Assembly: GCA_015061915.1 (NCBI GenBank)
Contig: SUVR01000005.1
Coordinates: 101,596 to 165,595 of the forward strand
Reading direction: 5' to 3'
Length of the DNA stretch: 64,000 bases
From: Lentisphaerota bacterium
GTDB lineage: Bacteria > Verrucomicrobiota > Lentisphaeria > Victivallales > UBA1829
The position numbers and the translations under genes are program-made. The notes beneath the pieces were generated by a model. The model was not told the DNA's origin and made no database searches. It worked only from the letters and a program-made list of their open reading frames with translations. Within the stretch, counting starts at the first letter, position 1. Every line of letters begins with the position of its first letter. Positions 20,383-59,496 of this stretch are shown one piece after another.

Positions 20383-20591
20383 ACGATTCCCTCATCTACA
20401 TCTGAAGTGAAATGTTTTCTGTTCGTCAACCGTTTTTTATAAACTTTCATTACTTTGTGTTCCATATGCAAAATGTATGATTGAAACTGCCAATATGTAT
20501 GCTGTTCCTTGTGGGGTAATTTATCGCAACTTGAAGAAAGTGCAAACGAAAAGCCGAAAAAAAACAGTTTTTTTGGCGTATGGATTTAAAA

Positions 20592-24383: not shown

Positions 24384-24389
24384 CGAATG

Positions 24390-25097: not shown

Positions 25098-25113
25098 GAA
25101 ATCCCGCCCTGCC

Positions 25114-43702: not shown

Positions 43703-44101
43703 TTATTCTGCTGCGTCTTCCGGTTCTTCCGGGGGAAGTTCCACTGCGATCAGGGCACGCTGCATCATATTGCCGATGTATTGCATCATCAGCGTGCGTG
43801 CTTCAAAGAAAGAAAGTTTTTCACGGTCGATAAACCACTGGATCAAGTCCCGCATAAGGATCGGCTCCGCTTTGATCAACCGGTAAAGTTCGCAGTTGAA
43901 TCCGGTGAGCAGGTGCTTTTTATAATCCCGCATTTTCCAGATCACATTGACGATTTTGGCGAAAAATCCGTGACGCAGCTTGATCTTCAGCTGAATGTAA
44001 TCTTCGCCTTCTTTTTCCAGAACAGCGGCATCATTGATGCGGACCGTGGCACGCATCTGCCGCTCAAAAGAAATAGGCTTTGTCTGCTTTTTCTTTGCCA
44101 T
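43703..44101 (-). CDS. Hypothetical soluble protein (last gene of the ABC/OPT-like operon)
   Basis: 132 aa. Basic N-terminus MAKKKQTKP and acidic C-terminus PPEEPEDAAE. Starts 3 nt after the upstream stop. Confidence 0.5.
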   Translation of the reverse strand: MAKKKQTKPISFERQMRATVRINDAAVLEKEGEDYIQLKIKLRHGFFAKIVNVIWKMRDYKKHLLTGFNCELYRLIKAEPILMRDLIQWFIDREKLSFFEARTLMMQYIGNMMQRALIAVELPPEEPEDAAE

Positions 44102-44104
44102 AGA

Positions 44105-45025
44105 TCAGTCCTTTGCCGTCAGTTTCTGCTGAAAAATGTCTTTCAGTTTTTCCCGTTCTTTCGAGAATTGGGAGCCGAGATGCTCAAACGCATAGATCCG
44201 GTTTTCTGATTTTTTGTAAAATGCGGAAGCGAAGCCGTGCCACCAAGGACCGAGAAGAAAGTCGAAGCCGAACTTGCCTCTGGCACGGTAATCGATTTCT
44301 ACCGTTTCACAGCCGTTCACCGGCGGAAGCTTCCGGATGTCCCGGATCGCATAGCGTCTCGCATAGAGGCAGCGGTGATAAAAGTTTGCCGTATCCGCTC
44401 CCTGCATATAGACGTCTGCCAGACCGAACCGGTGGACGCTGATTTTGTAATGCTTGGCATTTTCAAAATTCATTGTTACCGAGGTGGGAACCGCCTCCAG
44501 ATCCACAAAATGGTATCCTTCCGGCAGACTTACTTCCAGTCCGAACAGCGCAAAAAACTGCCGTTTTGTCGCCGGATCCGGAGCGTTGTCGGTAAAGGAG
44601 TCCAGCATAGGGACGACCAACTCCGCCATATCCTTGCTGTATTTATCAAAAATCCATTCGCAGAGAAGCATTTTAGACAAATTGAAGACGCTGGCATAAA
44701 ACCGTTCTCCCTGCCTTGTATGGGCAAGATAAACCCTGCCGTTGGCGTGGCGGGTGAAACGGATTTTCGGTGCCGTATCTTCTCCCAGATAACGGCGGTG
44801 GACTTCTTCAATGATTCGCTCAATGTCCGGAGATGCATTTATTTTCCGCCAGGAAAACTGCCCCATCGGACCTTTTTCCGTGGCAAAAGAGAAACGTCCT
44901 TCCCGCTCCGCATCATCCAGATCGTAGGCAGTGATCTCCCAGTCTCTGGGGAGCAGAAAAGAAAAACCGGACATCGCTGTCCGGAATTGAGGATGTCTGA
45001 AATGTTTGAGATCAACCATGTTCAT
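44105..45025 (-). CDS. Hypothetical soluble protein
   Basis: About 306 aa from the ATG at 45025 (MNMVDLKHFRHPQF...). The track start at 45052 is a TTG. No TM and no recognisable motif. Overlaps the upstream ATPase stop. Confidence 0.5.
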   Translation of the reverse strand: MNMVDLKHFRHPQFRTAMSGFSFLLPRDWEITAYDLDDAEREGRFSFATEKGPMGQFSWRKINASPDIERIIEEVHRRYLGEDTAPKIRFTRHANGRVYLAHTRQGERFYASVFNLSKMLLCEWIFDKYSKDMAELVVPMLDSFTDNAPDPATKRQFFALFGLEVSLPEGYHFVDLEAVPTSVTMNFENAKHYKISVHRFGLADVYMQGADTANFYHRCLYARRYAIRDIRKLPPVNGCETVEIDYRARGKFGFDFLLGPWWHGFASAFYKKSENRIYAFEHLGSQFSKEREKLKDIFQQKLTAKD

Positions 45026-45755
45026 CACGGATGGACCCGGTGTCGATGTCAAGGTCAGACACGTTTTCGATGTGGTCGATCTTACCCTGATCGATCCAGA
45101 CGATTCTGGAGGATGCCGCCAGCATACGGTGGTCGTGTGTTGCAGAAATGACCGTCACACCGAATTCTTTTGTCATGTTCTTGAACAATTCAATGATCCC
45201 GGCACCGGTCTTCAGGTCCAGGTTTGCAGTCGGTTCGTCCGCCAGCAGAATGGTCGGATTGTTTGCCAGCGCACGGGCAATGGCAACACGCTGCTGCTGA
45301 CCGCCGGAAAGTTCCAGCGGCTTGTGGGTGAGACGCCCGTGCAGCCCCACGAATTCCAGCAGTTCTGCGGCACGCTTTTCCGCTTCTTTGCGGGGAGTAC
45401 CGAGCAGGATCTGGGGGATCGCCGTGTTGTCCAGTGCAGAAAGGTGCCCGATCAGGTTGTAGCTCTGGAACACATAACCGATATAGCGGCAGCGGAAATA
45501 GGCAAGCTGCAGCGGAGAAAGCTTTGTCAGGTCCACATCACCGACCTTGATTGCCCCCTGCGTCGGCGTATCCAGAGCCCCGATCATATTGAACAGCGTG
45601 GATTTACCGGATCCGGAGGGACCCATGATCGAGATGTATTCTTTCCGGTAGATATCCAGATTGATCCCGCTGAGTGCGTGGACTGCGGCATCACCTTTGC
45701 CAAAGGTCTTCCAGATGTTTCTTACAACGATAAAAGGATCTTTTGTTTCTTCCAT
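45012..45755 (-). CDS. ABC transporter ATP-binding protein (MacB/LolD/FtsE-type), module 2
   Basis: Walker [11 protein letters not shown]-loop, signature [15 protein letters not shown], Walker B ILLADEPT, and H-loop ATHD. ATG at 45755 follows GGAGAG. The track start at 45767 is a TTG that abuts the upstream stop. Confidence 0.9.
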   Translation of the reverse strand: MEETKDPFIVVRNIWKTFGKGDAAVHALSGINLDIYRKEYISIMGPSGSGKSTLFNMIGALDTPTQGAIKVGDVDLTKLSPLQLAYFRCRYIGYVFQSYNLIGHLSALDNTAIPQILLGTPRKEAEKRAAELLEFVGLHGRLTHKPLELSGGQQQRVAIARALANNPTILLADEPTANLDLKTGAGIIELFKNMTKEFGVTVISATHDHRMLAASSRIVWIDQGKIDHIENVSDLDIDTGSIRDEHG

Positions 45756-45767
45756 AAGACTCTCCAA

Positions 45768-47729
45768 TTAGTAGGGCAGGGCGCTTGAGGATTTCGAGAG
45801 GAACACAATACCGACGCAGAGCATCGATATCAGACCGCTACCGACAAAGTAACCTGCAGATACAACAATGATCGAACGTTTCCAATTTTCACCGTATTTC
45901 TTGCGGAATACAAACTGTCCCAACACTGCACCGATGAACTGCGGGATCGCCGAGTGCGGCATCGTCTGGTTGAAACCGCGGACAATACCGTAGCAGAGGG
46001 TAGTCGGCGCCGAGAAGAACGCAAACGTACCGAAACTGATCAACCCGGTAATCGTACCAATGATGATGTAGGAGATCCGGAACGCTTCACTGAAGGGCGA
46101 GTAGTAACCCAGCGTGGAGGAGTAGATCAGAGCTGCATTCTTTGCGTTGAATTCCCAGATTTCCATGGTGTAGGGATATGCCGCAGAGGGGACGTCGCTC
46201 AAAGAGAAGATGAAGCTGGAGAATCCGACAGTGGCAAGCAGAATGATCGGGAACAGCAACGCGTCCACCTTCCAGATGGAGCGGAAACTTGTTCCGGTCA
46301 GTTCAGCTGTCTTGTAGAACACGGTCATTGCACCGTAGTTTGCCTGCGGTGTCGGAATAAACCAGATCGCCAACCCCTGATAACCGGAAAGGATGAAGGA
46401 GATTTCACGGATATACGGCACTTCCACCACCTGACCGGCAAGACCTTCCAGTCGTGCGGTCACATAGGAAATCAGCGGTGTGTAAACGATCCCGAAGAAA
46501 ATCAGAACGATCATCACGCCCTTGTGCCAGTCAATCAGCCAGCCGGCGACCAGAATGTAGAGAGACGTGGAGGTGATATAGGTGGCGATGAACAGCCAGT
46601 TCGGAATGTCACCGCGCCCTTTCGGAATCTCATTTTCCTTGATTTCGTCCGGAGTCATATCCGGCTTTTTGCTGCTGGCGCGGATCACACTGATTATACC
46701 GACAACAGCAATTGCCAGTGAAAGACCGATCCCGAAGCTGAAGTAGAAGTCAACGTTGTTGTTGAACAGCGTTTCGACCGTACTCTGCTGTTCTGTCCAG
46801 GAGGGGAGCAGACGCATCTTGAAGAGGATCGGGTTCAGCACGAAGGTAATGATCAGACCGATAAAACTGCCGACCATGGCGAAGAAGGGCAGCACCATAC
46901 CCAGGATCACGTTACCCAGGTCAAATGCCAGACCGGTCGCCACTGCAGGCAGGACTTTAGCCGTGTTCTGTGTCCAGTCAACGAAGGGGATCGGGAAGAT
47001 CTGGATCGTTTCCTTGAGGAACGCCCCGGAAAGAGCCGGGATACCCATATAAAGGAAACCGAACGCCATCCCGATGGCACCGCCGATGGAGAATGCTCTC
47101 CAGCGCCAGGAGCCGCCTTTTTCCCCTTTGTCGGAGAAGTCTTCAGCCAGCGTCATCATGCCCTGAGCCTGCATCGGAGCCATGGGGAAGGGCAGTTTTT
47201 CCACGTCACTGGTCATACGGAAAAGACCGTACCCCAAGATCGTTGCGTCCGCACGTCCGATGATACCGGTGAACAGCATCATACCCAAAGCCGGCAGCCA
47301 CGCTTCCTGAATGAAGGTACGGGGCAGTTCCGCCACGTTGGAAGGCGCATACCATTCCGGGAACTGATCCAGCAGACCGAAGGAGGTTGCAGCTTCGCTT
47401 CGTACCATAAACTGACGGAAGATCAGGTCAATATTACCGCTGGAGATCACAGCCCCTGCCATGTAGAACAGGATGAAGATTTCCGCCTTTTTCAAGGTCG
47501 CGTTGGCGCGTTTTGCCAGTTCGATGAAGAGGATCACCGTCACCCACTGAGCAGCGGCACCGATCCCCACACCGGCGATCAGCTGCATATAGACTGCGCC
47601 GGGGATCATCACGATTGCGATAAAGATCGCACCGAAGAATGCAGAAAGTGTAAAGCCGTCATCGAAGTGCGAAGGCACTTCCATCAGGTTCTTATATTCC
47701 TGTAATTCCTTGTCAAGTTTGTGTGCCAT
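45768..47729 (-). CDS. OPT-superfamily-like polytopic membrane protein, module 2
   Basis: About 653 aa, about 14-16 TM. Motif VEKLPFPMAPMQAQG resembles the OPT/YSL 'KLTYPSGTATA' block. ATG at 47729 is preceded by AAGGAGAG; the track start at 47753 overlaps the upstream gene. Confidence 0.55.
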   Translation of the reverse strand: MAHKLDKELQEYKNLMEVPSHFDDGFTLSAFFGAIFIAIVMIPGAVYMQLIAGVGIGAAAQWVTVILFIELAKRANATLKKAEIFILFYMAGAVISSGNIDLIFRQFMVRSEAATSFGLLDQFPEWYAPSNVAELPRTFIQEAWLPALGMMLFTGIIGRADATILGYGLFRMTSDVEKLPFPMAPMQAQGMMTLAEDFSDKGEKGGSWRWRAFSIGGAIGMAFGFLYMGIPALSGAFLKETIQIFPIPFVDWTQNTAKVLPAVATGLAFDLGNVILGMVLPFFAMVGSFIGLIITFVLNPILFKMRLLPSWTEQQSTVETLFNNNVDFYFSFGIGLSLAIAVVGIISVIRASSKKPDMTPDEIKENEIPKGRGDIPNWLFIATYITSTSLYILVAGWLIDWHKGVMIVLIFFGIVYTPLISYVTARLEGLAGQVVEVPYIREISFILSGYQGLAIWFIPTPQANYGAMTVFYKTAELTGTSFRSIWKVDALLFPIILLATVGFSSFIFSLSDVPSAAYPYTMEIWEFNAKNAALIYSSTLGYYSPFSEAFRISYIIIGTITGLISFGTFAFFSAPTTLCYGIVRGFNQTMPHSAIPQFIGAVLGQFVFRKKYGENWKRSIIVVSAGYFVGSGLISMLCVGIVFLSKSSSALPY

Positions 47730-47730
47730 C

Positions 47731-50700
47731 TTATGCCTTCTCTCCTTCCGCATCAGCAGCGCTGTTCAAATTCTGGGCTGCAAGTTCCCGATAATGCATG
47801 ACCGTTTCCACCGGCAGGGAACGCCACAGGAGGAACTGGTTTCTGATTTCACCGACGAAACGGGTGTTCCCGCGCAGCCACGCTCCCTTGGAGCCGTCCT
47901 TGCGGATGATACGCACCGTTACAACATCAATTCCTTCGATATCGGAAGGAGCTGAGTACATACTCATCTCTTCTGCAACACCCAGGTCAAAGGGCGCAAG
48001 AGTGAAGTCGGCGGTCAGCATATAGCCATCCGTCAGTTCGTTCTTGCCGTGAGTGATCCGGATATTGGAGGCGGCAAAGCTGCCGAGAGAGCTGTCTGCA
48101 TGGTTTGCAAAGTGTTCACTGATGAACACCAGAATACCGCCGAAGTCCACACGGGAAACCGTGAAGGGGAACTGGAAGCAGAGGATATCGCCATCCGGCG
48201 GCGGCATTTTCCATTTTCTTGCGACGTCCGGGCTGGCGGCACGGCCCGCCTTGATGGCAGGATAAACCGTGGAGAGCAGAACGATCGCCATAACGATCAG
48301 GATCGTGTAGACCGTGGTCATGGAGGAGAAGTTCATCTGCGGTGCTTCCAGCACACCGCGTTTCGCCAGTGCAGTAAGGACCGCATTGGTGACCTGGCTG
48401 AGCAGATAGCCGCCGAGACCGCCGATCACGGCGTAAACGCTGGATTCAGCGAAGAACAGGCAGCTGACATCTTTCGGGGAGAGTCCCAGTGCGCTGAAGG
48501 TGAAGATTTCACGTTCGCGGTCGGCAATGGAGCCAAGCAGCGAGCTGAGGATGATCAAAGCACCCAGCAGCAGCGGGACCAGCAGGTTGCTGAGACCGGA
48601 GGCTTCAAAGACCGGAGCCATGAAGTGCCGTTCCACTCCGTTGGATGCAGTGTTGGAGTAAACAATACCGAAGGTGACTTCGGCAATGTCCGTCGCATCC
48701 TTGCGGATATCGATTTCACTGCTCTTCGGGTAGAAGAGGACGGCATTGACGAAACCGTTGACCTTCTTTGCTGTTTCGTAGTCGGTCAGCATCGTCAGGT
48801 CCGGAGAACTCCAGATGAAGTTACTGGCGTCAACATAAGAACTGTTCAGAACAGCAAAGATGTTGGAGGCTTCAGCCGTGGCTGTCTGGTTGAAGTTCGG
48901 CGGAGTGACCTTACCGTTGTCAAGGTAGGTGAAATCGTCCAGATCCTTTGCTTCAAAGACGCCATCCAGCCGGACCGGCATCGTTCTGAGGTAGAAGATG
49001 TCGCCCACCTTCAGATCGAGAGATTCCGCTCTGACTTTAGAGAGATAGACACCGGGAACCGGGTCCGCAGCAGGAGCCGTGTACGGAGTTCCGTTCTTTT
49101 CCGCTTCTGCTTTTTTCTGCAGTTCAGCAGCCGTTTTTTCTCTCAGTTTCACCATCAGTTTACCCAGTTTTTCGGAGCTGATGGTTTCTTCCGGTTCAAA
49201 ACCGACCACCGCATCCAGTTCAATCGTCTGGGGCAACGGTTTGCCATCCAATGTTCCGTGGAATTTCGGATTGTAGATGACGTTTGCCTGATTGGGATAG
49301 GTGGGAAGCATATAGAACGGAGAATTGTAACTCGCCGAACGGAAGAATACATGATAATCATCTTTGTAAAGTTCCTTCATGGAGCGGCAAAGTGGTTCCA
49401 GCAGATCCACGTGCTGCGGCAGGAAGGATTCAATACGCTGTTCGCCGGATCCGCTGCCCATATAAACCGGGCGTACATAGGTAGTGGAATCGAAGGAGGC
49501 GAAGGAGATGATCGTGAAGGTCAACAGTACGACCGTCAAGATGGTCAGAAGTGTTTTGACCGGACGGTTTCTCATACTGGAGACACCGATCATGATCGCC
49601 GCCAGCAGCATACTGTTTTCAGAATTCACACGGTGAGCAGAGGTATCCATTCCCTGCATGGCGAGCAGTTCCGATTTGAACCGGCTCATCACAATGTAGA
49701 TCACCATAACACTCATCACGATGATGAAGAATGCAATGAAGATGATCATCGGGGACTGGGACATGGCAAATGCCGGGTGCGTGAAATAGAGCATCAGGAA
49801 GGTGCCGATGAAGAAGACCAGGATCCAAGCCATCTGCTTGTAAATGCTGGTTGCGCCGATAAGGAGGCGTTCCAACGCAAAGGAGAAGGGGATCGTCAGG
49901 ATCAACAGGATCAAGACACTCTTGACCAGGTCGTTGATCAGATTTTTGAGCGGTCTGTATGCCTGTACCGCCAGCGTCTGCCCGAAGATTTCGTGGGCTC
50001 TTGCCAGGTTCAGGTTGCCTTCTTCATGAGCTGCTTTCGCCGCCTGTTTGTGCTGTTCCGCTTTGTCGTGATAAAGTTCAACAACACTGTTGAAGATATT
50101 ACGGCTGTGCAGTTTTTTCAGACGCTGCAGGTTCAGCGCAATCGTGTTGTCGATCGCAACACGGTTTACATTCAGGTTTTTCAGAGCTTCCGGTTCAATG
50201 GAGATACCATCGCCGGTCGGGACATCATCCGTAACTTTCCCCAACATAAATGTTTCATTGTTGAAGTACAGTTTGGACTTGATGTTGCTGTCGGCGTAGG
50301 CATAGCCGTCACCGGTTGCCACACGGGCATAGGTTTTGGAGTTTTTGAACGCACTGTCCGTGAAGCCGTTGACCAGACTCAAAGAGCCGGCGAAGTTGGA
50401 AGTCAGCGGAGCGTAGGGATAGAAGTGCGGACCGCCGTATGCACGGAACAGTTTTGTCTTGTCGGCACTGGAGTTGATATATTTCACGTGACCGACTTCA
50501 TCAAAACAGATAGCACCGCAGTGGAGGTTGAAGTTTTCTCTGCCCCATCTGCCGCCGCCGGTCAGCAACGGCATGGTGGTGTAGCCGATCTGATTGATCT
50601 GTCCGATAGCAGCCTGCGAGAAGCCAGCCATCGGAAGGATACGGTCGTATTCATTCTGCTGAACGAGGGCGAGGGCGCCGGCGGCAGGTCCGTCAATTTC

Positions 50701-53124
50701 TTTGCCGTCTTCAGAAAGAATGTTGAACTGTCTGCCCTGAGGACTGCCGGTGTAGTAATAGTTTACGATGTTATCATACATTTTGGATGCTTCAAACATC
50801 GTTGTCATTGCTTTATCCGTGAAGGATTTATCGTTCACGAGGACCGTAAACATTTCGGTCATGACCGGGATCATTGCCTTGAGGTCGTCCGCCTTGTGCT
50901 TGCCGGGCATTTCGTCAAAATCATACTGATTGGAAATACTGCGGAGCGTGGTGGAGAATGTTTCAGACAGGGGCAGAGATGCCGCGTGAGGCAGGTATAC
51001 CAGAGAAAGGCTGCTGAGCGTATTGACCGCATTGCTGCCAATACCCAGACTTTCTTTGAAGAAGAGCTGGCTGGTCAGCGGCATTTGGTTCAGTGAAACT
51101 TCAAACTTTTCAAAGAACTTTCTGTAGTTTGCCGGTTCCAGTGTGTGAGAATAATGCAGCGCCTCATACGTTCTGGTAGCAAAGAAGAACGGTTCTGTAG
51201 CAGAAGCCAGATCAAAGTAATAGATCCCTCTCAAATTGTAATTTTTGGTGGCTTCGGCAATATCGATCCAGCAGTCGCCCATGCGGATGGAGAGAGCCAG
51301 TTCCTTTTCGCGCTGTTCAAGCGTGTTCCGGATTCCCTGTGCAAAGGAGGCAAGCATCTTTCTTTCAGCAGGTGTTTTGATCAGGCGTTCGTTGATGAGA
51401 CGACGCATATTCGCAACATCTTTTTTCGTGGTATCAAGATATTTCTTTTCTGCCGTCAGTGCATCGATCTGCTTCTGCAGTTCGGGGGAGACTGTTGCAT
51501 TTTTACCGGGGTTCAGCTTCCGCAGCAGAACGTTGATTTCCGCAAGACGGTAGTTCTTGGCATTGTAGTCTTTGATGACTGCATTTCTGAGCAGCAGACG
51601 GACTGCGCCGTTGGTCGGTTCCAGCGGATCGCCTTCATCGCCGTTTCTGAAATCCTTTTGAATTTCATCATATTTTTCGATCAGCTCGTAATACTCTGCT
51701 TCCAGTGCTGCTTTTTTTGCAGCATCAGCCGTTTGGGAAATTTCTTTTTCCTTGGACTGGATCGCAGCAAGGGTGCTATCCATTTCAGCTTTCAGCGTTT
51801 CCAGTTTGGCATCCGGCATTTTTGTGCTGAAGATCAGAGCAAAATAGATGATCAGCGCAATACCCATCAAAGAAATCCAGCTGCCCCAGGTGAGATAACG
51901 TTTTGCGTTGAACTCGACCTTTTCTGTGCCTTTTTTCCAGATCAGGGCAAGAATGAAAAGTCCGGCGGCAAGAATCAGAACGCCAACTGCAACGCCGATA
52001 TATTTTGTGTAGTCTTTCACCGTGTATTCGGTTTTACTGCGCACGATCGGAGCAGGCGTTTCCAGAATATTCAACTTAACTCTGTTGTCTGCAATTTCCT
52101 GTTCAAAACCGGATTTGTATGTGGAGATCTCCGGCGGATTGGCGGCATCATTTTTTCTTTTGAATACCGGGTAATAGAAGAACCGCAGCCCGTCATAGGC
52201 ATTGAAAGAGGATCCGTAGAAGACAATAAATACGGAATTATCCAATTTCTGTTTGGAGAGATTGAGCGCCGTTTCGGCAAGCAGAGCAATGTTTTCTGCC
52301 TGTCTTTCGCCGGCGACCATACCGGGAACCGTTCCGAACGTATCAAGTCTGGCGTTCAGGAACATCGCTTCGGAAGCGGAACCTTTGATCTCGGTCCAAA
52401 GGTTGATCCCTTCCACCTGTTTCCAACGGGAATGGCAGAGCAGAGATGCTTTCGGCAGTTTTTCTTTTGCAACTTCCGGTGTAGCCTTCAGCAGATCGTG
52501 CTTCAAGGCTTCATCACGGGTAATGTAAAAATAGGGGAATGCAATATGATACTGGCTGAGTACCTTCGCCGCATCCCACTGAGTTGCAGTGTCATTGCCA
52601 ACGAACACAATGGCTTTTGCACCTTCGGGGAAGAAGACTTTGGGATAGTAGCTTTCGCCCCAATCCAACAGGACGATCTTGCCGTCAACATGACCGAAAT
52701 CATTGCGCTGGAGACGTTCGTTGGAGATATAGACCAGCGGACCTTCCAGTTTCTTTTCACCGGTGGAAATCAGTGCCGCATTGTTCGGCGCCAGCGGATA
52801 AAATTCGACATCTTTGCCGTTGACTTTGAATTCCTTTTCTGTGACTTCCGGAACCAGAGTCGGGTATGTCTGACGCTTCAGAACGATTCCTTTGTCGCGG
52901 AAAGATTTTTCGATCGCTTCAACTGCTTTCAGGTATTCCGGACTGCCGGGAACCCGGTGCGGCAGAGCGGCAAGCTCCTGCTTGATCGTATCGTAAATGG
53001 CAGTCGTTGCGGGTACCGTTTTTGCCGCTTCAACCGTTTTCTCCGGGGTCGCCGGAGCTGCCTGCAGCATAAAGGCAGCAGAACACAGGATCAGCGGAAG
53101 AATTTTTTTCAATCTGGTCATCAT
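47731..53124 (-). CDS. 1797-aa multidomain membrane protein: signal peptide, degenerate M28/PA peptidase-like ectodomain, coiled coil, large unknown ectodomain, FtsX/MacB-type permease unit, C-terminal tail
   Basis: Signal peptide [24 protein letters not shown]-like GPLVYIS..VDGKIVLLD..GAKAIVFV. M28-like FLNARLDTFG / AGERQAENIALLAETA. MacB-type TM1 SMRNRPVKTLLTILTVVLLTF. FtsX box SIADREREIFTFSALGLSPKDV followed by 3 TM. ATGA overlap with the upstream ATPase stop. Confidence 0.8.
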   Translation of the reverse strand: MMTRLKKILPLILCSAAFMLQAAPATPEKTVEAAKTVPATTAIYDTIKQELAALPHRVPGSPEYLKAVEAIEKSFRDKGIVLKRQTYPTLVPEVTEKEFKVNGKDVEFYPLAPNNAALISTGEKKLEGPLVYISNERLQRNDFGHVDGKIVLLDWGESYYPKVFFPEGAKAIVFVGNDTATQWDAAKVLSQYHIAFPYFYITRDEALKHDLLKATPEVAKEKLPKASLLCHSRWKQVEGINLWTEIKGSASEAMFLNARLDTFGTVPGMVAGERQAENIALLAETALNLSKQKLDNSVFIVFYGSSFNAYDGLRFFYYPVFKRKNDAANPPEISTYKSGFEQEIADNRVKLNILETPAPIVRSKTEYTVKDYTKYIGVAVGVLILAAGLFILALIWKKGTEKVEFNAKRYLTWGSWISLMGIALIIYFALIFSTKMPDAKLETLKAEMDSTLAAIQSKEKEISQTADAAKKAALEAEYYELIEKYDEIQKDFRNGDEGDPLEPTNGAVRLLLRNAVIKDYNAKNYRLAEINVLLRKLNPGKNATVSPELQKQIDALTAEKKYLDTTKKDVANMRRLINERLIKTPAERKMLASFAQGIRNTLEQREKELALSIRMGDCWIDIAEATKNYNLRGIYYFDLASATEPFFFATRTYEALHYSHTLEPANYRKFFEKFEVSLNQMPLTSQLFFKESLGIGSNAVNTLSSLSLVYLPHAASLPLSETFSTTLRSISNQYDFDEMPGKHKADDLKAMIPVMTEMFTVLVNDKSFTDKAMTTMFEASKMYDNIVNYYYTGSPQGRQFNILSEDGKEIDGPAAGALALVQQNEYDRILPMAGFSQAAIGQINQIGYTTMPLLTGGGRWGRENFNLHCGAICFDEVGHVKYINSSADKTKLFRAYGGPHFYPYAPLTSNFAGSLSLVNGFTDSAFKNSKTYARVATGDGYAYADSNIKSKLYFNNETFMLGKVTDDVPTGDGISIEPEALKNLNVNRVAIDNTIALNLQRLKKLHSRNIFNSVVELYHDKAEQHKQAAKAAHEEGNLNLARAHEIFGQTLAVQAYRPLKNLINDLVKSVLILLILTIPFSFALERLLIGATSIYKQMAWILVFFIGTFLMLYFTHPAFAMSQSPMIIFIAFFIIVMSVMVIYIVMSRFKSELLAMQGMDTSAHRVNSENSMLLAAIMIGVSSMRNRPVKTLLTILTVVLLTFTIISFASFDSTTYVRPVYMGSGSGEQRIESFLPQHVDLLEPLCRSMKELYKDDYHVFFRSASYNSPFYMLPTYPNQANVIYNPKFHGTLDGKPLPQTIELDAVVGFEPEETISSEKLGKLMVKLREKTAAELQKKAEAEKNGTPYTAPAADPVPGVYLSKVRAESLDLKVGDIFYLRTMPVRLDGVFEAKDLDDFTYLDNGKVTPPNFNQTATAEASNIFAVLNSSYVDASNFIWSSPDLTMLTDYETAKKVNGFVNAVLFYPKSSEIDIRKDATDIAEVTFGIVYSNTASNGVERHFMAPVFEASGLSNLLVPLLLGALIILSSLLGSIADREREIFTFSALGLSPKDVSCLFFAESSVYAVIGGLGGYLLSQVTNAVLTALAKRGVLEAPQMNFSSMTTVYTILIVMAIVLLSTVYPAIKAGRAASPDVARKWKMPPPDGDILCFQFPFTVSRVDFGGILVFISEHFANHADSSLGSFAASNIRITHGKNELTDGYMLTADFTLAPFDLGVAEEMSMYSAPSDIEGIDVVTVRIIRKDGSKGAWLRGNTRFVGEIRNQFLLWRSLPVETVMHYRELAAQNLNSAADAEGEKA

Positions 53125-53900
53125 ACTTTAAGCTCCTGTCCGTCTTTTCTTGCAATCTGGGCGCGACGGATATCAACTTCAGCACTCAATTCGATCCGGT
53201 CGATCAGACCATCACTGAGCCAAAGCATTCGATCGCTTACCGTAAGCATATTGTGGTCGTGTGTAACGCAAACGACAGTAACGCCGTCGTTCTTATTCAA
53301 ATCGTAGAGAAGATTGTGAACATCATTCCCCGTCTTGAAGTCAAGGTTTGCTGTCGGTTCGTCGCAGAGGATCAGGGACGGGTCATTCGCCAGAGACCGG
53401 GCGATTGCAACACGCTGCTGCTGACCGCCGGACATTTCTTTCGGTCTGTGGTTCCAGCGTTTTTCCAAACCGACGCGTTCCAGAAGGCGCATTCCTTTCT
53501 TACGTGCTTCTTCGGGGCTCTTACCGGCGAAAATCATCGGCAGGGTCACATTTTCCAATGCTGTCATAACCTGATTGAGGTTGAACTGCTGGAACACATA
53601 GCTGATCTTCCGGCAACGGAGGAACGCCAGTTCAGAAGCCTTGAGCTGTGCCATATCCACTTCGTCAATAAAGATTCGTCCTGCAGTGGGAGTGTCAAGG
53701 GCTCCGATCATATTGAACAGAGTTGATTTACCGGATCCGGAGGGTCCCATGATACAGATATATTCTCCGCGGTAGATCTCCAGGGAGATATTTCTGAGCG
53801 CATGCGTGACTTCCGCCCCGCGGTGATAGGTCTTTTCGATGTGGTGCACACGCACCAGAACCTCTTTACCTTTCGCATATTCTACTGGATCGTAAGGCAT
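53121..53900 (-). CDS. ABC transporter ATP-binding protein (MacB/LolD/FtsE-type), module 1
   Basis: [36 protein letters not shown]. Shares the identical block [23 protein letters not shown] with the 45012-45755 product. Confidence 0.9.
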
Positions 53901-53921
53901 ATTGTTATCCTCTCGTCAAAA

Positions 53922-55511
53922 TTATTCCACACGCATTGCTTCCATCGGAGCCATACGGGCTGCTTTCGCAGAGGGGTACAGCGAGGAAAGCACCGAGAGC
54001 AGCACGCCTGCCAGCAGGGAGAACAATGCTGCAAAACCGATCATACTCCAGTCGAACGAGGCAAAAACACGAAGTCCGACCTGGAATACCGAACTGGACA
54101 AAGCAACGATGAATCCGAGGATGAGACCGATCACACCACCGATCACGCCCTGGATCATTGCTTCAAGAACAATCTGGATCAAAATAAAGGAGTCTGTTGC
54201 ACCGAGACACTTCAGTGTTGCAATTTCACGGAAGCGTTCTGTGATACTCATAAGCATAGCATTGGTGATCCCGACCACGCAGACCAGGAAGGAGAGACAC
54301 ATCAGATAAATCTGATCGGGTGTAAATCCTTTTGCATCGTCCAGCGTGTTGATGTCGAGCTGGAGTTCCAGCTTCTGCAGTTCTTTCTGCATATCATCGT
54401 TTTCACGGATGGATTCGAGGTCCGTTCTGGGAATCAGTTTCAGCTGATCATCGGGAAGTGACTTCACTTCGTCGGGATTGCCGCCGAAATAGATCACGTG
54501 CTGCAGTTCGCGCAGATTTCTTTTCTGCTGACTGGGCGCTTCATTAAAGACACGCCATGTTTTATTGGTATCAAGATGAGCCAGTTTTTCGTCCATACGG
54601 CTGTACTGATTTTTGCCGTAGACCTGACGCCATCTGATACGGTAGGCTTCATTGGAAAGAAGCATTTTGACTTTATTGGTGCGTTCCTGGACATCCAGGT
54701 AGTCGACGATCATTTTTGTTTCGTCATCGGTGATAAACACGTTCAAAGCCGCCAGTTTATCGCGCCACTGCTGATTGATCTGTTTCTGAGCATTCAGATC
54801 CAGCAGATGTTTTGCCAGGACCTGTCTTTCTTTCAGTTCTTTCCCGTCGGTTGCGCGTGCGGGGAAAGCCTTGTCATTCCGCACAGCCTGCAGTTTTGCG
54901 AAAGACTGTTTCAGTTCGGTCCGGTATGCTTTATAGCCGTCGAGATAGGTTTTGAGTTTATCTTCACCGCCGGGGATCCGGATCCCGCCGAGTTCACGGG
55001 TCTTTTTCAGGAATTCGTCATAACTGCCATCCTTGAGCAGCATTTCCAGCTGAGCGGAATCCTTGTTCTGACCGAAAAGAGCTTTGCGTTTCCCGAAGGG
55101 CAGTTTTTCAAAGAAACGGAGATAAATCATTTCCTGTGCGGCGTTATCAACAAACGTCTGCATCTGTTTCTGATCTTTGCCGAGCATTTTAGCCAGGCGG
55201 TCGAAATCGCCGGGACTCTTTCTGGCATCAACCAGCATGGAGACGAAGTCTTTTTCTGTAATAGAAGCATAGAGCATATTCAGGATACGCGCAGCTTTGC
55301 GGCTTTCCAGAATTTCTTTTTCCACGCCTTCTTTTACGGAGTTTCTGAAAATATTACTGCACTGCAGGAACATAAAGAACGCCACAGCCAGAATCACCAC
55401 GCTCAAGGTGAGCAGTGAACGCATAAAACGGTGCCGGATACTGCTGATACAGAAATCCAAAGTTTCGGCAAAGGTCATTTGCCTTTGTTTTTTGATAATG
55501 ATTTCTTCCAT
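53922..55511 (-). CDS. FtsX/MacB-type ABC permease with ~340-aa helical ectodomain, module 1
   Basis: N-terminal RHRFMRSLLTLSVVILAVAFFMF (MacB TM1 pattern), a K/E/Q-rich ectodomain, and a C-terminal FtsX domain ITERFREIATLKCLGATDSFI... ending ..YPSAKAARMAPMEAMRVE. Confidence 0.85.
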   Translation of the reverse strand: MEEIIIKKQRQMTFAETLDFCISSIRHRFMRSLLTLSVVILAVAFFMFLQCSNIFRNSVKEGVEKEILESRKAARILNMLYASITEKDFVSMLVDARKSPGDFDRLAKMLGKDQKQMQTFVDNAAQEMIYLRFFEKLPFGKRKALFGQNKDSAQLEMLLKDGSYDEFLKKTRELGGIRIPGGEDKLKTYLDGYKAYRTELKQSFAKLQAVRNDKAFPARATDGKELKERQVLAKHLLDLNAQKQINQQWRDKLAALNVFITDDETKMIVDYLDVQERTNKVKMLLSNEAYRIRWRQVYGKNQYSRMDEKLAHLDTNKTWRVFNEAPSQQKRNLRELQHVIYFGGNPDEVKSLPDDQLKLIPRTDLESIRENDDMQKELQKLELQLDINTLDDAKGFTPDQIYLMCLSFLVCVVGITNAMLMSITERFREIATLKCLGATDSFILIQIVLEAMIQGVIGGVIGLILGFIVALSSSVFQVGLRVFASFDWSMIGFAALFSLLAGVLLSVLSSLYPSAKAARMAPMEAMRVE

Positions 55512-55513
55512 GA

Positions 55514-57595
55514 TTACACCTGATAGCTGATGGTGGAGGGATTCTTGGTAATGATATAAAAGATCAGCCCGCTGATGATAAACAGACCGGAAGCTGCAAT
55601 TTCACCAAAGATCAAGCCGAGGAAAAGCGGTTTCATCTTGATGTAGTTCTTTTCACCGCCGAGCTTGACCACGATGGTTCTGAGGAGCCAGCCAAGCAGG
55701 AAGCTGAACCAGATCACGTTCGCCGGACCGGTGTTCCAGATACAGAAGATTACTGCATGGAAGGGCCACCAGAGGAAACGGGTCCGCATAAAGCCGGTAA
55801 AGAATACTGCTGCGATACCAAGAATGAAATATACCACATAGTTGATCTTTTCCGGTTCGATGGATTTGATTCTTTCACCGATGTTGGAGAAGTTGAATGC
55901 ACCTTTGAAACGTTCCTGCCATGTGGTTTCCGGAGTATAAACCGGTTCTGCCAGCTGAGCGTTGTTGTTCAGGTGTTCGATTTCAGAATAAGAGTCTCTG
56001 ATACCCAGAGACCATTCGGTTTTCTGCGGGTCTTTGTTGTTGCCGAGGCTGTAATACTGCCAGATGTGCATGAAGAAGGCAGCGCCGAATGCGATAAAGA
56101 TCGAAATCATAACGATCATGCCGACACGGCGGAGTTTGACACCGGCATCGTTGGTCACCTTCATACCGGTGGCGACATAGGGCATCATCAACTGCTTCAT
56201 ATCGCTGCAGAGAACACCGCTTGCCTGACCGGATGCCATCAGGTTTTCCGGTCCCAGCGCCAGACCACCAAAAACTTTTGCCAGGAAAGAGTTGGGCATA
56301 AACGGGGAAGCCATAAGGGGAATACCCGCTTCGCAGACGATTCGCGTGAACACCAGATACATCATGATCAGAAGCAGGGTCGTTGCCGATGCCATAATGA
56401 TGTCCATCCCGAACAGCGTGAACATAAACACAAGGAAGAGAGCGGTGAAAATGAACAGTCTTGCACCGAAAACGGCGCCCTGATCTTCTTCCGAAACACG
56501 CTTCCAGGTGATAGCCTTCCAGAAAATCGAACCGTAATATTTTCTGCCGAGAATGACCATCATGATCACAAATGCCAGATAAGCACCGGCGCGGAAGACC
56601 TGATTTTCCATACTGGAAGGAGCAACGCCGGTCGCTTCATAAACTTCCGTAGCAAACAGAAGATAGACAAAACCGTTCAACCCGACGCTGAGGCTGAGTG
56701 CCGGAGCGAGGAAGTAGGCGATCCCCACGATCAGGAACATGATTTTCACCGCACCGAAAATGCCGGAACAACCGGTCTGACCGATGATGGGGAAGGTTTC
56801 GCTGAGACCGGAGAGCATATAAGTCATCTGGATCGGCTTGAACTTTGTGTTGGGGTCCGAAGCCTGGGCGAAATTGTAAAGATGAATAATAAGGACAAAA
56901 AGGAAAGACATCCAGAAAAGTTTGGAGCGGAAAATATCAGCGAAGTGGCTGTTTTCATCCTTCTTTTCAAACAGGGACTGTGCAACCGTTGCGAGCGGGT
57001 AAGTAAGTTTTTCGTTCCGGATCCACTGACGATGGACGATCAACAGCAGAGCAAGAGACATAAGAGCGACCAGCAGGATAACCGTACCCCAGTAGATCAG
57101 GGGCATTTCCCAGGCGGACCAGGGTACTTCGCCGAAGGGCAGCCATTCACCGATACCGGTCTGGAACTGTGCAATGTTTTCACCGGGTTCGGGCAGGGTG
57201 TCGTGGTTCAGGTAATCGCCGATGTGTTTTTCCTGCCAGGAGCGGTTGCTGGAAAGAGTATGAACGGTCATTGCGGACTGCGTTGCAAACTGTTTCATCC
57301 AACCGTACCAGGCAAAGCCGCCGGCGGTGAGCGTCATGACGAATGCGACCGCAAGTTCTTTGACATTCAGCGCGAGACGCGGAACGTATCTGGAACAAAA
57401 CGGGTTCCAGAGCAGGCAGATCAGGAAGAAATAGAAATAAATCCCGATGCCGAGCTGATGGTTCAAGATTGACTGTTTTGCGATAGTCGGGCCGAATTGA
57501 CTTCCTGCAGCGATCAAAAGGATGCCGAGTAACCCGGCAATGATCGCTTTCGGCGTAAACGCCCGCGTTTTTGCTTTCTCAATGTTTCCGTCCAT
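55514..57595 (-). CDS. OPT-superfamily-like polytopic membrane protein, module 1 (first gene of operon)
   Basis: 693 aa, about 16 TM. NEKLTYPLATVAQSL closely resembles the OPT/YSL KLTYPSGTATA block and the paralogue motif at 45768-47729. Confidence 0.55.
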   Translation of the reverse strand: MDGNIEKAKTRAFTPKAIIAGLLGILLIAAGSQFGPTIAKQSILNHQLGIGIYFYFFLICLLWNPFCSRYVPRLALNVKELAVAFVMTLTAGGFAWYGWMKQFATQSAMTVHTLSSNRSWQEKHIGDYLNHDTLPEPGENIAQFQTGIGEWLPFGEVPWSAWEMPLIYWGTVILLVALMSLALLLIVHRQWIRNEKLTYPLATVAQSLFEKKDENSHFADIFRSKLFWMSFLFVLIIHLYNFAQASDPNTKFKPIQMTYMLSGLSETFPIIGQTGCSGIFGAVKIMFLIVGIAYFLAPALSLSVGLNGFVYLLFATEVYEATGVAPSSMENQVFRAGAYLAFVIMMVILGRKYYGSIFWKAITWKRVSEEDQGAVFGARLFIFTALFLVFMFTLFGMDIIMASATTLLLIMMYLVFTRIVCEAGIPLMASPFMPNSFLAKVFGGLALGPENLMASGQASGVLCSDMKQLMMPYVATGMKVTNDAGVKLRRVGMIVMISIFIAFGAAFFMHIWQYYSLGNNKDPQKTEWSLGIRDSYSEIEHLNNNAQLAEPVYTPETTWQERFKGAFNFSNIGERIKSIEPEKINYVVYFILGIAAVFFTGFMRTRFLWWPFHAVIFCIWNTGPANVIWFSFLLGWLLRTIVVKLGGEKNYIKMKPLFLGLIFGEIAASGLFIISGLIFYIITKNPSTISYQV

Positions 57596-57660: not shown

Positions 57661-57688
57661 ATAATATCACAACTTCTATTTTTTTCAA
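57661..57688 (-). promoter_or_regulatory. Candidate sigma-70 promoter of the ABC/OPT-like operon
   Basis: On the minus strand: TTGAAA (57688-57683), 16-nt spacer ending TGa, TATTAT (57666-57661). Lies about 65 nt upstream of the ATG at 57595. Confidence 0.35.
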
Positions 57689-57824: not shown

Positions 57825-58367
57825 TTATTCTGCTTTTCCGGCAGGCTTTGCGATTTCCAAAACCTTGAGGACTGCCCGGTCTGTATCCGCATTTTTATTT
57901 TTCTTCTTGCGTTCGGTTTCTGCTTTCAGGCGATCAAGGCGTCCCTGCATCTGCCGGATCCGTTTTTCATACTGGCGGATCTGCTTTTCCGTGAAATTCA
58001 GATGTCTCTCAAATTGCGTGGAGATCTTGTTGCGCAATTCCTGTTCAAGCCGTTTTTTTTCAGCCTCATCCGTGGTTGCGTGGTAGCGCTGACCGATGGC
58101 GATCAGTTCCTGTTTGTGTTTTTCAAATTCTTTTTTCCAGTATGCCCGCGCCTGCTCCCGGAAGGCAGCAGGATTTTCACGGAATAATTTTTTCAGCTGA
58201 TTTTTTTCTGCATCCGGCAGCTGATCAAGAAAAGGCGGATAAGGTCTTTCTGTATGACGATGAAGACTTTTTGCCGGAGCCGGCGGAGGAGGAGCGGCAA
58301 AGGTCTGCGGAAGCAGCGCTGCAACGAAAAGCAGAGCTGAAAAATGGATGAAATATTTGCTTTTCAT
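57825..58367 (-). CDS. Secreted helical protein, Spy/CpxP-like (periplasmic stress-chaperone-like)
   Basis: Signal peptide MKSKYFIHFSALLFVAALLPQTFA followed by K/E/Q/R-rich helices. It is the third gene after the ECF sigma and anti-sigma genes. Confidence 0.45.
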   Translation of the reverse strand: MKSKYFIHFSALLFVAALLPQTFAAPPPPAPAKSLHRHTERPYPPFLDQLPDAEKNQLKKLFRENPAAFREQARAYWKKEFEKHKQELIAIGQRYHATTDEAEKKRLEQELRNKISTQFERHLNFTEKQIRQYEKRIRQMQGRLDRLKAETERKKKNKNADTDRAVLKVLEIAKPAGKAE

Positions 58368-58402
58368 AATGTTATGACTCCGTATTGCATCTTGTTCTGT
58401 TT

Positions 58403-58936
58403 TTATTTTTCAAAGGGGTTGGAAGTGAGTGCAGTGTAGCTCATATCCCATGCGGAAACGGCAGCGATATCCAGGTCGACTTCATTGAAATCATCCGAAA
58501 GATCCGAGATTTCAGTCAGGACATCGGTCCAGGCGAGATTGGATTGATCGCTTGTTGTAACTGTATTGTTTGCAAGGCGATCTGCTGAAAAACGATTTGT
58601 TTCTCCCGTGAGTTGAAGGGTGTCGGAAGCGACCGGGGACTGTTCCTGCATTGTTGTGAAACAGAGAATGGAAAAAGAGACAGCAAAAGCAGCGGCAATG
58701 CTGCCGGACCAGAAAAGGATCCGTTTTTTCTGAGCTCTCTGATTTTTTTTCAAATTCTGTCTGGCGGCAGCCATAATGAAAGAATCGATCTGTGCAGACG
58801 GAACCGCAGCGGAATGTTTCAATTCCGCTTTCAGATCTTGCATAAATGTTTCATCCTGTTTGCTTAACATCTGCTGTTCCATTTCATTTTTCTTTTGATT
58901 TTTCATAATCCCGCCTCCTTTTTTTAACTTATCCAA
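58403..58936 (-). CDS. Putative anti-sigma factor (single-pass membrane protein)
   Basis: 177 aa with one TM (ILFWSGSIAAAFAVSFSILCF). Directly downstream of, and overlapping, the ECF sigma gene. An alternative start exists at 58906. Confidence 0.5.
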   Translation of the reverse strand: MDKLKKGGGIMKNQKKNEMEQQMLSKQDETFMQDLKAELKHSAAVPSAQIDSFIMAAARQNLKKNQRAQKKRILFWSGSIAAAFAVSFSILCFTTMQEQSPVASDTLQLTGETNRFSADRLANNTVTTSDQSNLAWTDVLTEISDLSDDFNEVDLDIAAVSAWDMSYTALTSNPFEK

Positions 58937-59496
58937 CCCGAAAGTTGCGTTCTCAGCTTTTTCAAAGCGTACTGCATTCTTGCCAGGCAGGTGTTAATGG
59001 AGCATTTTTGTATGACGGCGATCTCTTTGAATGAGATGTTCTCGCATCTCATCAGGAAAACCGCTCTGATCTCCGGAGAAAGTGTCTGTACTGCCTCCTG
59101 AATCGCATCTGCCAGTTCTCTGTTCTGAATGTTTGAATCCGGCGCAAAGGATTCTGCAGCGGGAAGGATCGCCTCAAATTTTTCATCGAACTCGGACTCT
59201 GCCCGCCGCTTTCCTGCCCGGAAGAGATCGATTGTCTGGTTGTATGCGATTCGCATCAGCCAGGCGGAAAACTTTTCCCGGTTTTCATAGCGGTGCAGAT
59301 TGTCGATCGCTTTCAGCCAGGTGCGCTGAAAGATGTCATCCGCATTTGCTTTTTCCCCACGCAGCAGATTTTGCAGGTACCCGTAAAGGGGCTGCCGGTA
59401 TCTTTCATAGAGCAGATCGAAAGCCTGTGCATTGCCACCCAGATACGAGCGGATCAGCTCCTGATCAGTTTGTATGTCCGGTGTTTCTGCAGTCAT
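58924..59496 (-). CDS. ECF-type RNA polymerase sigma-70 family factor
   Basis: 190 aa. Region 2 (AFDLLYERYRQPLYGYL...DIFQRTWLKA..F.AWL.RIAYNQTIDLFR) and region 4 (FLMRCENISFKEIAVIQKCSINTCLARMQYALKKL). Confidence 0.9.
   Translation of the reverse strand: MTAETPDIQTDQELIRSYLGGNAQAFDLLYERYRQPLYGYLQNLLRGEKANADDIFQRTWLKAIDNLHRYENREKFSAWLMRIAYNQTIDLFRAGKRRAESEFDEKFEAILPAAESFAPDSNIQNRELADAIQEAVQTLSPEIRAVFLMRCENISFKEIAVIQKCSINTCLARMQYALKKLRTQLSGWIS

Follow-up and report, generated by a model that had tools for sequence, protein, structure and literature searches.

The window analysed here is a stretch of 64,000 nucleotides from a Lentisphaerota bacterium (GenBank assembly GCA_015061915.1, contig SUVR01000005.1, positions 101,596 to 165,595). 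On its minus strand it encodes a giant protein of 1797 residues in which a degenerate, peptidase-like head and an ATP-binding cassette (ABC) permease are joined in one chain. We hold this architecture, and the pseudo-enzyme status of the head, with high confidence. On its role we lean, somewhat, towards the view that it serves as the large permease subunit in a type VII ABC mechanotransducer of several components, in which the dead-peptidase head would bind a ligand, probably a peptide. The protein belongs to a large conserved family that combines a fused pseudo-enzyme head with an extra cluster of three transmembrane (TM) helices, a novel cytoplasmic domain and unusual partners, and for which we found no describing paper.

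The giant gene and the layout of its product

The giant gene (47731–53124, minus strand) is a single unbroken open reading frame (ORF) that begins with ATG, comprises 1797 codons plus a stop, and shares its first 4 nucleotides with the end of the ABC ATPase gene upstream. Every string quoted from it in an earlier note on this DNA is present in the translation: HRVPGSPEYLKAVEAI, GPLVYIS, VDGKIVLLD, GAKAIVFV, NLWTEIKGS, NARLDT (N257–T262), AGERQAEN (A271–N278), SMRNRPVKTLLTILTVVLLTF and ADREREIFTFSALGLSPKDV.

Could so unusual a protein have arisen from an assembly or annotation error that joined two genes? Its length is the sole point in favour of such an artefact, to which we give practically no credence. 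When one genome per species was scanned, 484 loci turned out to encode a relative, and among the best 80 of these about 65 genomes carry complete, unbroken orthologues of 1500–1984 residues. These genomes are independent and come from different studies, which excludes an assembly fusion and bears out the earlier view of a single protein. The length distribution of proteins carrying its C-terminal domain (see below) and the score of the AlphaFold model of residues 1–1062 likewise speak against the artefact.

The layout was derived from a Kyte–Doolittle hydropathy scan and two AlphaFold models, which concur. The first model (residues 1–1062) has a predicted local distance difference test score (pLDDT) of 83 and a predicted template modelling score (pTM) of 0.81; the second (residues 1050–1797) has a pLDDT of 82 and a pTM of 0.62. 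A predicted signal peptide (53056–53124, residues 1–23; hydropathy peak at 8–26, model helix 2–20, cleavage site placed by eye before AP) is followed by an ectodomain (residues ~40–365), a TM hairpin (51832–52020, residues 369–431; model helices 369–400 and 407–431) and a coiled-coil-like periplasmic stalk (51247–51813, residues 438–626). Further ectodomain (residues 627–1061) leads to a 3-TM cluster (49675–49941, residues 1062–1150) that is supported by hydropathy, model helices and invariant columns. After a short cytoplasmic linker (residues ~1151–1186) comes a MacB/FtsX-type unit (48235–49566) made of TM1 (residues 1187–1210), a periplasmic domain (1211–1508) and TM2–4 (1509–1630), and the chain ends in a family-specific cytoplasmic domain (47734–48234, residues 1631–1797). 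The modelled topology would be self-consistent if the signal peptide is cleaved, with the ectodomains outside and the linker and tail inside.

This layout reproduces the parse that the earlier note had made by eye, namely a signal peptide, an M28/PA region, two TM helices at about residues 375–433, a coiled coil, a 3-TM cluster, a MacB-like unit with its FtsX helices, and a tail. Profile hidden Markov models, family profiles, structure prediction and fold searches all agree with it.

An M28-like head that has lost its metal ligands

The first part of the head (52135–53007, residues 40–330) resembles peptidases of the M28 family and carries a PA-like insert at about residues 120–215. With phmmer, the single sequence already aligns over residues 43–313 with a PA-domain M28 aminopeptidase of known structure (PDB 2ek8, E=3.8e-4). 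A profile built from 71 orthologous N-termini reaches the same structure at E=1.5e-14 and further matches YwaD/BSAP (6hc6, 1.3e-12), nicastrin (1.5e-7), Pseudomonas PaAP/keratinase (about 4e-6) and the transferrin receptor (1e-3). Pfam recognizes M28 (PF04389) in 34 of the 71 orthologues, PA in 10 and Nicastrin in 6; in a Pfam scan of the window protein itself, M28 and PA stay below detection. Foldseek searches with the head model again return 2ek8 (1.4e-14), along with BSAP, 3iib, and GCPII and TfR1, the latter two at about 1e-10. Since the phmmer alignment, the family profile, the Pfam matches in orthologues and the Foldseek matches all point the same way, the assignment of the head to an M28 fold with a PA insert, which had been proposed from a by-eye resemblance, is secure as judged from sequence and model.

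The same alignments indicate what the head has lost. The metal-ligand set of M28 peptidases (His, Asp, Glu, Asp, His, with a catalytic Glu) is not retained at the positions that can be aligned. The first His ligand, in the HxD box, is R259 in the window protein, as had been read from NARLDT; in a family alignment, 55 of 79 members have Y at this position, 18 have R, 3 have F (76 of 79 together) and just 1 has H, so that the ligand is missing from 78. The box that normally holds the bridging Asp (GAxDNxSG) reads ERQAEN within A271–N278, again in line with the earlier reading. In place of the Glu-Glu pair stands Ser-Phe in the alignment with 2ek8 or Ser-Ser in the family alignment, and the catalytic-Glu position is H in 60 members, S in 11 and A in 7. 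When the last His is aligned by eye it is E, G or D, which suggests that this ligand has been lost too. Among the HxD box and the other M28 catalytic positions aligned, only the Asp of HxD is invariant. Conserved residues of the head include R57, N114, D261, R274/E274 and R314.

An alternative would see in the head a working M28 aminopeptidase, tethered to the membrane, by which peptides are trimmed ahead of uptake. The M28/PA fold is there, some relatives carry the NCBI label ‘M28 family peptidase’, and the HxD Asp has been kept throughout. The replacement of first His, bridging Asp and Glu-Glu pair in the window protein, and the absence of the His from nearly every relative, leave this very improbable. 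Because ligand and catalytic positions are replaced in the 79-member alignment, the head is best described as a pseudo-peptidase throughout the family, and the suspicion that the peptidase is inactive is upheld at the first His, the bridging Asp and the Glu-Glu pair. It follows that the giant protein should not be called an M28 peptidase, as it is in some database records: the fold is present, but the defining metal ligands are replaced at the positions that can be aligned.

Compared with PA-domain M28 aminopeptidases such as those of Aneurinibacillus AM-1 (2ek8), Bacillus subtilis (YwaD/BSAP, 6hc6) and Pseudomonas (PaAP), the head has the same fold and the same PA insertion point. It differs in its replaced ligands, in an insert of about 300 residues in the window lineage and in being tethered to a transporter. 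With TfR1, GCPII and nicastrin it shares an M28/PA-type ectodomain on a membrane protein. TfR1 and nicastrin use the M28 fold without catalysis, as a receptor for a ligand or substrate. The giant protein has an ABC motor where these proteins serve endocytosis or gamma-secretase, and there is no sign of direct descent.

Insert, stalk and the remaining ectodomain

In the window lineage, about 300 residues consisting of a helix, the TM hairpin and the coiled coil stand after the first M28-like half. The stretch described earlier as K/E/A-rich and coiled-coil-like corresponds in the AlphaFold model to five long helices of 25–42 residues (residues 438–626), and the stalk region at residues 431–630 forms a block with pLDDT 77–96. 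Among orthologues from the Planctomycetota–Verrucomicrobiota–Chlamydiota (PVC) phyla the insert measures 141–333 residues. The TM hairpin varies between lineages: it is present in the window clade and a few others and missing in many members, among them P0016–P0020, P0022 and most members of the Armatimonadota branch. Relatives of that branch such as P0101 have a contiguous M28-like domain, in whose second half M28-like motifs can be seen by eye (GLDLSS, and VDTPFDT where the HTPxDT box would stand). Hairpin and coiled coil thus seem to have been inserted into the M28-like domain.

If so, part of the ectodomain of about 550 residues that the earlier note had left unassigned would be the second M28 half. 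The candidate segment is 50800–51246 (minus strand, residues 627–775), where the domain would resume after the insert, as the alpha/beta elements of the model and a by-eye series of motifs suggest; invariant P740, within a DEMPGK segment, aligns by eye with the HTPxDT box. This placement did not reach significance in three comparisons: a phmmer query spliced to remove the insert did not extend its alignment to PDB sequences past the first half, an hhalign comparison of the second half between the PVC and Armatimonadota branches was not significant (E=0.52), and a family profile of residues 627–1062 gave zero matches in PDB and Pfam. The ectodomain itself stands as described, with residues 627–775 as the putative second half of the M28-like domain.

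The rest of it is modelled as a beta-rich domain (residues 800–975) and membrane-proximal helices (residues 978–1061; together 49942–50727, minus strand), with conserved residues G878, F893, G973, R1001 and I1010. The family profile of this part matches neither Pfam nor PDB sequences.

The permease half

Few parts of the protein are as well conserved as the 3-TM cluster (D1065, E1085-R1086, H1116-P-A-F and S1138), in which D1065 and H1116-P-A-F are invariant. Behind it, Pfam recognizes FtsX (PF02687) at residues 1518–1628 with 4e-12 and 46.7 bits against a cut-off of 25.5. Sequence matches of this half in the PDB are LolC, LolF, the MacB-like permease of Streptococcus pneumoniae (5xu1), MacB and YtrF. 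In Foldseek, the permease model finds MacB (5lil, 6.9e-9) and also LolC/E, HrtB, YbbP and BceB, with FtsEX–EnvC structures among its weaker hits. The predicted MacB-like unit, with TM1, a large ectodomain and an FtsX box with three TM helices, is thus recovered both in sequence and in the model. Its periplasmic part, put at about 330 residues in the earlier note, is modelled at residues 1211–1508 and gives just a weak Foldseek match to the periplasmic region of MacB (5c59, E=0.017). Pfam does not report MacB_PCD (PF12704) in the window protein; in four aligned relatives the domain scores 26.2–36.6 bits after TM1, three of the four above the cut-off of 27.

By fold and Pfam match, the C-terminal half is therefore assigned to the type VII (MacB/FtsX/LolCE) ABC permease modules. 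It belongs to none of the named subfamilies tried. With the LolC/LolE equivalog models the giant protein scores 21 bits against 473 and 17 against 362; it gives no match to the FtsX and FtsE equivalogs (TIGR00439, NF038346/7, TIGR02673), and remains below the cut-off of every curated equivalog tried (FtsX, LolC/E, MacB and DevC).

The strongest profile match of this half comes from a collection of defence-system models, PADLOC CARF_m8--CARF_LolE_TM (PDLC01991, 129 bits). It covers profile positions 60–601 of 810 and residues 1052–1678 of the giant protein, and includes the first ~40 residues of the tail. The match is colinear with the 3-TM cluster (profile 60–194), the periplasmic domain (304–440) and TM2–4 (429–561), as far as the layout of the model can be read from its name and the matched positions. 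The tail searched alone gave zero matches to PDLC01990 and PDLC01991, and the M28/PA head matches neither. A reading of the locus as a defence system was rejected: PADLOC matches are confined to generic permease and ATPase parts, the context is one of housekeeping genes, and the window offers no CRISPR or defence context. Because such a context is lacking, the match to PDLC01991 is read as shared permease ancestry only. By its name and length, the related model PDLC01990 (CARF_m8--CARF_Beta-galactosidase_LolE_TM, 1791 positions) appears to describe another giant protein with an enzyme-like N-terminal part. Model names and matched positions hint that fusions of FtsX-type permeases to enzyme-like ectodomains may form a broader class.

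A cytoplasmic tail as family signature

The ~160-residue tail that the earlier note had mentioned is present at residues 1631–1797, and it turns out to be a conserved, family-specific domain. It is a compact alpha+beta domain with many invariant residues. Its profile finds nothing in Pfam and only chance-level matches in the PDB (best E=0.09), and Foldseek returns weak START/Bet v1-like matches (E about 0.02–0.05). An exhaustive search over 1.84 billion cluster representatives (50% identity clusters) recovered the tail in at least 1239 clusters at E<=1e-3, of which 669 reach E<=1e-10. In all 150 matches listed the tail is C-terminal; most of these proteins are 1450–2100 residues long, and shorter ones are taken as fragments. 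Since so many clusters carry it, always at the C-terminus in the matches listed, the tail serves, on sequence, as a signature by which the family can be recognized and its size gauged. The fusion was called unusual at the outset. Set against FtsEX, MacB and Lol as model systems this holds, yet the fusion is not confined to one genome.

A protein homologue search with the giant protein found 22 close homologues, and repeating it with the full alignment as query returned the same 21 proteins and no wider family. This wider family became visible only through a search seeded with the four most distant members, which collected more than 620 clusters at E<=1e-20, most of them with precomputed M28, MacB_PCD and FtsX domains. 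The family ranges over the PVC phyla, Armatimonadota/Fimbriimonadales, Chthonomonadales and Chloroherpetonaceae. Its phyla include Lentisphaerota, Verrucomicrobiota, Kiritimatiellia, Planctomycetota and Armatimonadota, with many gut or rumen organisms among the hosts of the gene. Cultured carriers are Oligosphaera ethanolica DSM 24202 (L059) and Verrucomicrobia bacterium LW23 (L074). Members are named automatically as “FtsX-like permease family protein”, “M28 family peptidase” or “hypothetical protein”, and relatives appear at the Joint Genome Institute (JGI) as “ABC-type antimicrobial peptide transport system permease”. Full-text literature searches returned no paper dealing with the family, with DUF6785 or with M28–FtsX, nicastrin–FtsX or PqqD–FtsX combinations.

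Some individual loci show peculiarities of their own. The closest one (L001, JAGAPM010000009.1), about 90% identical, stems from a Lentisphaeria metagenome-assembled genome (MAG) from water-deer caecum, which places the window in a gut member of the Lentisphaeria. Its giant orthologue has in-frame stops at codons 815 and 1053, both single-base changes relative to the window codons (TAG for Gln, TAA for Lys), and its neighbouring genes are intact; this is either a pseudogene or the result of consensus errors in that MAG. Locus L003 (CASERY010000089.1, uncultured bacterium CO.O43.metabat-bins.8) carries the orthologous operon at about 5589–18422 with 16 in-frame TAG codons over six genes: 6 in the giant gene, 4 in the FtsX partner, 2 each in the OPT-like and 315-residue protein genes, and 1 each in the ATPase and DUF6785 genes. 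In-frame TAA and TGA codons are lacking, as are frameshifts. Where the TAGs stand, the aligned proteins of the window mostly have Ala (6) or Leu (3), and no motif flanking the TAGs recurs. This suggests a sense reading of TAG in that organism, or else a systematic artefact of the MAG. Paralogous copies also occur: one Planctomycetota MAG (PL25a_bin.47) contains three loci of the family (L009, L010 and L027).

A conserved operon with unusual partners

The giant gene is part of an eight-gene operon (43703–57595, minus strand) whose genes lie 0–21 nucleotides apart or overlap. Its order is DUF6785/6784 protein, second FtsX-type permease (FtsX529), ABC ATPase (ABC259), giant, OPT-family protein (OPT661), second ABC ATPase (ABC251), 315-residue protein and PqqD-like protein. 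Synteny was followed by tblastn of the window neighbours against the best 80 of the 484 loci, a scan that yielded six of the genes; gene order is conserved across these 80 loci of several phyla and in three further contexts.

FtsX529 (53922–55511, 529 residues, Pfam FtsX 4e-19) has a charged helical loop of about 350 residues between TM1 and TM2, is 27% identical to TM2–4 of the giant protein and was found in 65 of the 80 loci. Within PVC loci, the insert length of the giant protein is uncorrelated with the length of its FtsX partner (rho=0.06); the contrast between branches alone remains. ABC259 (53121–53900, 259 residues, Pfam ABC_tran 6.7e-35) is an ATPase of the LolD/MacB/FtsE type, and ABC251 (45012–45767, 251 residues, Pfam ABC_tran 9.8e-34), present in 74 of the 80 loci, is 53% identical to it (BLASTP 7e-94). 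Both have intact Walker A, signature, Walker B and H-loop motifs. ABC259 matches NCBIfam LolD at 1e-67 with 227.8 bits, below the equivalog cut-off of 307.75, and scores comparably against bacteriocin, darobactin and DevA exporter models.

OPT661 (45768–47753, 661 residues) is a membrane protein of the OPT family (PF03169, 33.2 bits against 25.8) whose match covers residues 177–646 and profile positions 127–619 of 623. It lies directly downstream of the giant gene in 72 of the 80 loci and is more conserved across phyla than the giant protein (50–57% against 32–40% identity). The polytopic DUF6785/6784 membrane protein encoded by the first gene (55514–57595, 693 residues, Pfam 3.8e-68 and 1.8e-21) may be a remote OPT relative: BLASTP finds nothing between it and OPT661, and hhalign gives a marginal match between the two families (E=1.3e-3, probability 19%).

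At the other end of the operon, a soluble conserved protein of about 306–315 residues with an uncertain start codon (44105–45052) often follows the six-gene set. It has zero matches in Pfam and PDB and is linked by hhalign to the N-terminal 292 residues of a 455-residue protein of locus L083 (2e-41), to a 300-residue protein of L081 (8e-16) and to a 354-residue protein of L082 (4e-15). The last gene (43703–44101) encodes a 132-residue protein that is PqqD-like, that is, similar to a peptide-recognition element, by transitive homology. It matches residues 341–453 of the L083 protein (BLASTP 4.8e-13), which is encoded at the same operon position and matches Pfam PqqD over residues 388–446 (3e-6). 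Matches to the 132-residue protein occur in 15 loci, in most of them downstream of the 315-residue protein gene.

Two genomes of the Armatimonadota branch have a smaller set, taken as the minimal core: giant, OPT-like protein, a protein of ~300–350 residues, PqqD and an FtsX protein of 210–213 residues that is without a periplasmic domain. In L081 the OPT-like protein is 38.5% identical to OPT661 and a single ATPase is encoded; locus L082 runs no further than the FtsX gene. In L082 (P0067 context), a thioredoxin/AhpC-TSA family gene and two small ORFs lie between the giant and OPT-like genes (15849–16370).

In the gap upstream of the first gene, a promoter-like site (57661–57688, minus strand; TTGAAA, 16 nucleotides, TATTAT, TG-extended) matches the consensus at 10 of 12 positions. 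It is a candidate promoter by its position, the counts of sigma-70-like sites in the region being not above chance. Flanking genes are of the housekeeping kind (transketolase, RuvB, PurD, a NUDIX protein and an extracytoplasmic function (ECF) sigma factor). The ECF sigma factor (58924–59496) lies upstream of the operon on the same strand, with a 177-residue protein in the usual anti-sigma position that has no family match (58403–58936) and a 180-residue protein with a sub-threshold match to Pfam Metal_resist (PF13801; 57825–58367), all on the minus strand. Among the 80 loci this trio (57825–59496) recurs in L001, L002 and L004 alone, which are the closest relatives; a link of the operon to envelope stress is possible. 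Elsewhere in the window, at about 14000–26000, G+C drops to 0.40–0.48 compared with 0.51–0.56 in the flanks over a run of minus-strand ORFs, which may be a horizontally acquired or surface-polysaccharide-type island.

A proposed mechanism and its competitors

How could these components work together? In the mechanism that we propose, the giant protein and the smaller FtsX529 would pair as a heterodimer in the style of LolC/LolE. Binding and hydrolysis of ATP at the ATPases would be relayed through the TM helices to the periplasmic assembly, that is, by mechanotransmission and not by movement of cargo through the permease. We regard this part, which draws on what is established for MacB, LolCDE, FtsEX and YbbAP, as an even bet. 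The small FtsX partner of the Armatimonadota branch, with the single ATPase of L081, fits a heterodimeric permease. The dead-peptidase head would act as a binding module in the manner of the transferrin receptor or nicastrin. Its ligand would most likely be a peptide or a protein N-terminus, because of the OPT family, the PqqD-like recognition element and the former aminopeptidase pocket; it might be handed to, or gated at, the co-encoded OPT-family protein, and the PqqD-like protein could handle the peptide on the cytoplasmic side. We hold peptide cargo as a tentative idea, and import and export would both be compatible with the mechanism. Least firmly, and as a rather speculative extension, the eight genes may form an undescribed envelope machine common to PVC bacteria and Armatimonadota, in which an ABC motor with a dead-peptidase receptor captures periplasmic peptides or protein termini and feeds or gates an OPT-type channel, with the PqqD-like protein as recipient. 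If true, uptake would here be coupled to a receptor and assisted by ATP, in a way unlike that of binding-protein-dependent ABC importers.

Several points count against this proposal. The cargo assignment rests only on the family names of neighbouring genes, and glutathione, folate and metal chelates are also among the substrates of OPT proteins. The 132-residue protein of the window, taken alone, has no match in Pfam, no precursor-peptide gene was seen, and a full-text search found no papers or experiments on the family. With two ATPases and two permeases, a pair of separate homodimeric transporters is equally conceivable.

Alternatives start from the permease relatives. One is a regulator of envelope remodelling of the FtsEX kind, in which the permease pair would move coiled coils and head and thereby activate a separate hydrolase of the cell wall or envelope, the dead peptidase being a docking or activating adaptor. 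EnvC is a degenerate LytM protein that acts as an activating adaptor for amidases, and thus likewise a catalytically dead hydrolase-like domain; the FtsEX–EnvC system is reviewed in PMC7668044. The FtsX fold of the permease, the FtsEX–EnvC structures among the weaker Foldseek hits and the long periplasmic helices in both the giant protein and FtsX529 would suit such a regulator. The equivalog models do not: FtsX529 reaches 38.4 bits against 255 for FtsX, ABC259 198 against 264.85 for FtsE, and the giant protein is unmatched. Moreover, the operon lacks a hydrolase gene, three copies in one Planctomycetota MAG are hard to square with it, and it leaves no place for the OPT-family and PqqD-like partners. 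We consider it improbable, the operon context weighing more for function than the FtsEX analogy.

Along the same lines, the heterodimer could be a Lol- or YbbAP-like extractor that pulls a lipoprotein, lipid or hydrophobic peptide from the inner membrane to the head. LolC, LolE, LolF, HrtB and YbbP are the best sequence or fold matches, there are two different permeases with LolD-like ATPases, and YbbAP–TesA (PMC12646458) provides a precedent for the pairing of a type VII system with a partner of hydrolase fold. Yet every Lol equivalog cut-off is missed by a wide margin, a LolA- or LolB-like gene is lacking in the operon, and the START/Bet v1-like matches of the tail are weak. We think this, too, unlikely.

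A further possibility is a peptide exporter or a resistance pump against peptide antibiotics of the MacB/BceAB/DevCA kind, which would either export a cytoplasmic peptide held by the PqqD-like protein or remove an external antimicrobial peptide from its target. This would explain a PqqD-like recognition-element protein in the operon, and it agrees with the comparable scores of the ATPase against bacteriocin, darobactin and DevA exporter models and with the JGI name of relatives. It is doubtful in view of a conserved operon without precursor peptide, modifying enzyme, MacA-type adaptor or two-component sensor, which is maintained like a housekeeping locus across several phyla, and of a TM count of 7 (plus 2 in some lineages) compared with 10 in BceB.

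Place among type VII systems and significance

ATP-driven mechanotransmission across the inner membrane is classically exemplified by MacB, LolCDE, FtsEX and YbbAP. With them, the mechanotransducer proposed here shares a four-helix FtsX module, a large periplasmic domain between TM1 and TM2, and a separate LolD/MacB-type ATPase. As in LolC/LolE there are two different permease genes, and as in FtsEX–EnvC and YbbAP–TesA a hydrolase-fold periplasmic component is associated. To our knowledge, in all of MacB, LolCDE, FtsEX and YbbAP the periplasmic effector is a separate protein. In the giant protein, by contrast, the hydrolase-fold module is fused to the permease and, judged by its replaced ligands, catalytically dead; three extra conserved TM helices stand before the FtsX unit, and behind it comes the cytoplasmic tail specific to the family. 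Its operon also differs in having two paralogous ATPases and OPT-family, DUF6785/6784 and PqqD-like partners. From the PADLOC models, with one of which (PDLC01991) the colinear permease parts are shared, it is set apart by its unmatched head and isolated tail and by the lack of a CRISPR or defence context in the window.

The family thus fuses a dead hydrolase-fold module to a permease, adding three conserved TM helices and a new cytoplasmic domain, in members from phyla whose envelope biology is poorly understood. Its cargo, once worked out, would add a fifth functional class to the type VII systems, and the head would be a bacterial example of the “peptidase turned receptor” theme seen in the transferrin receptor and nicastrin.

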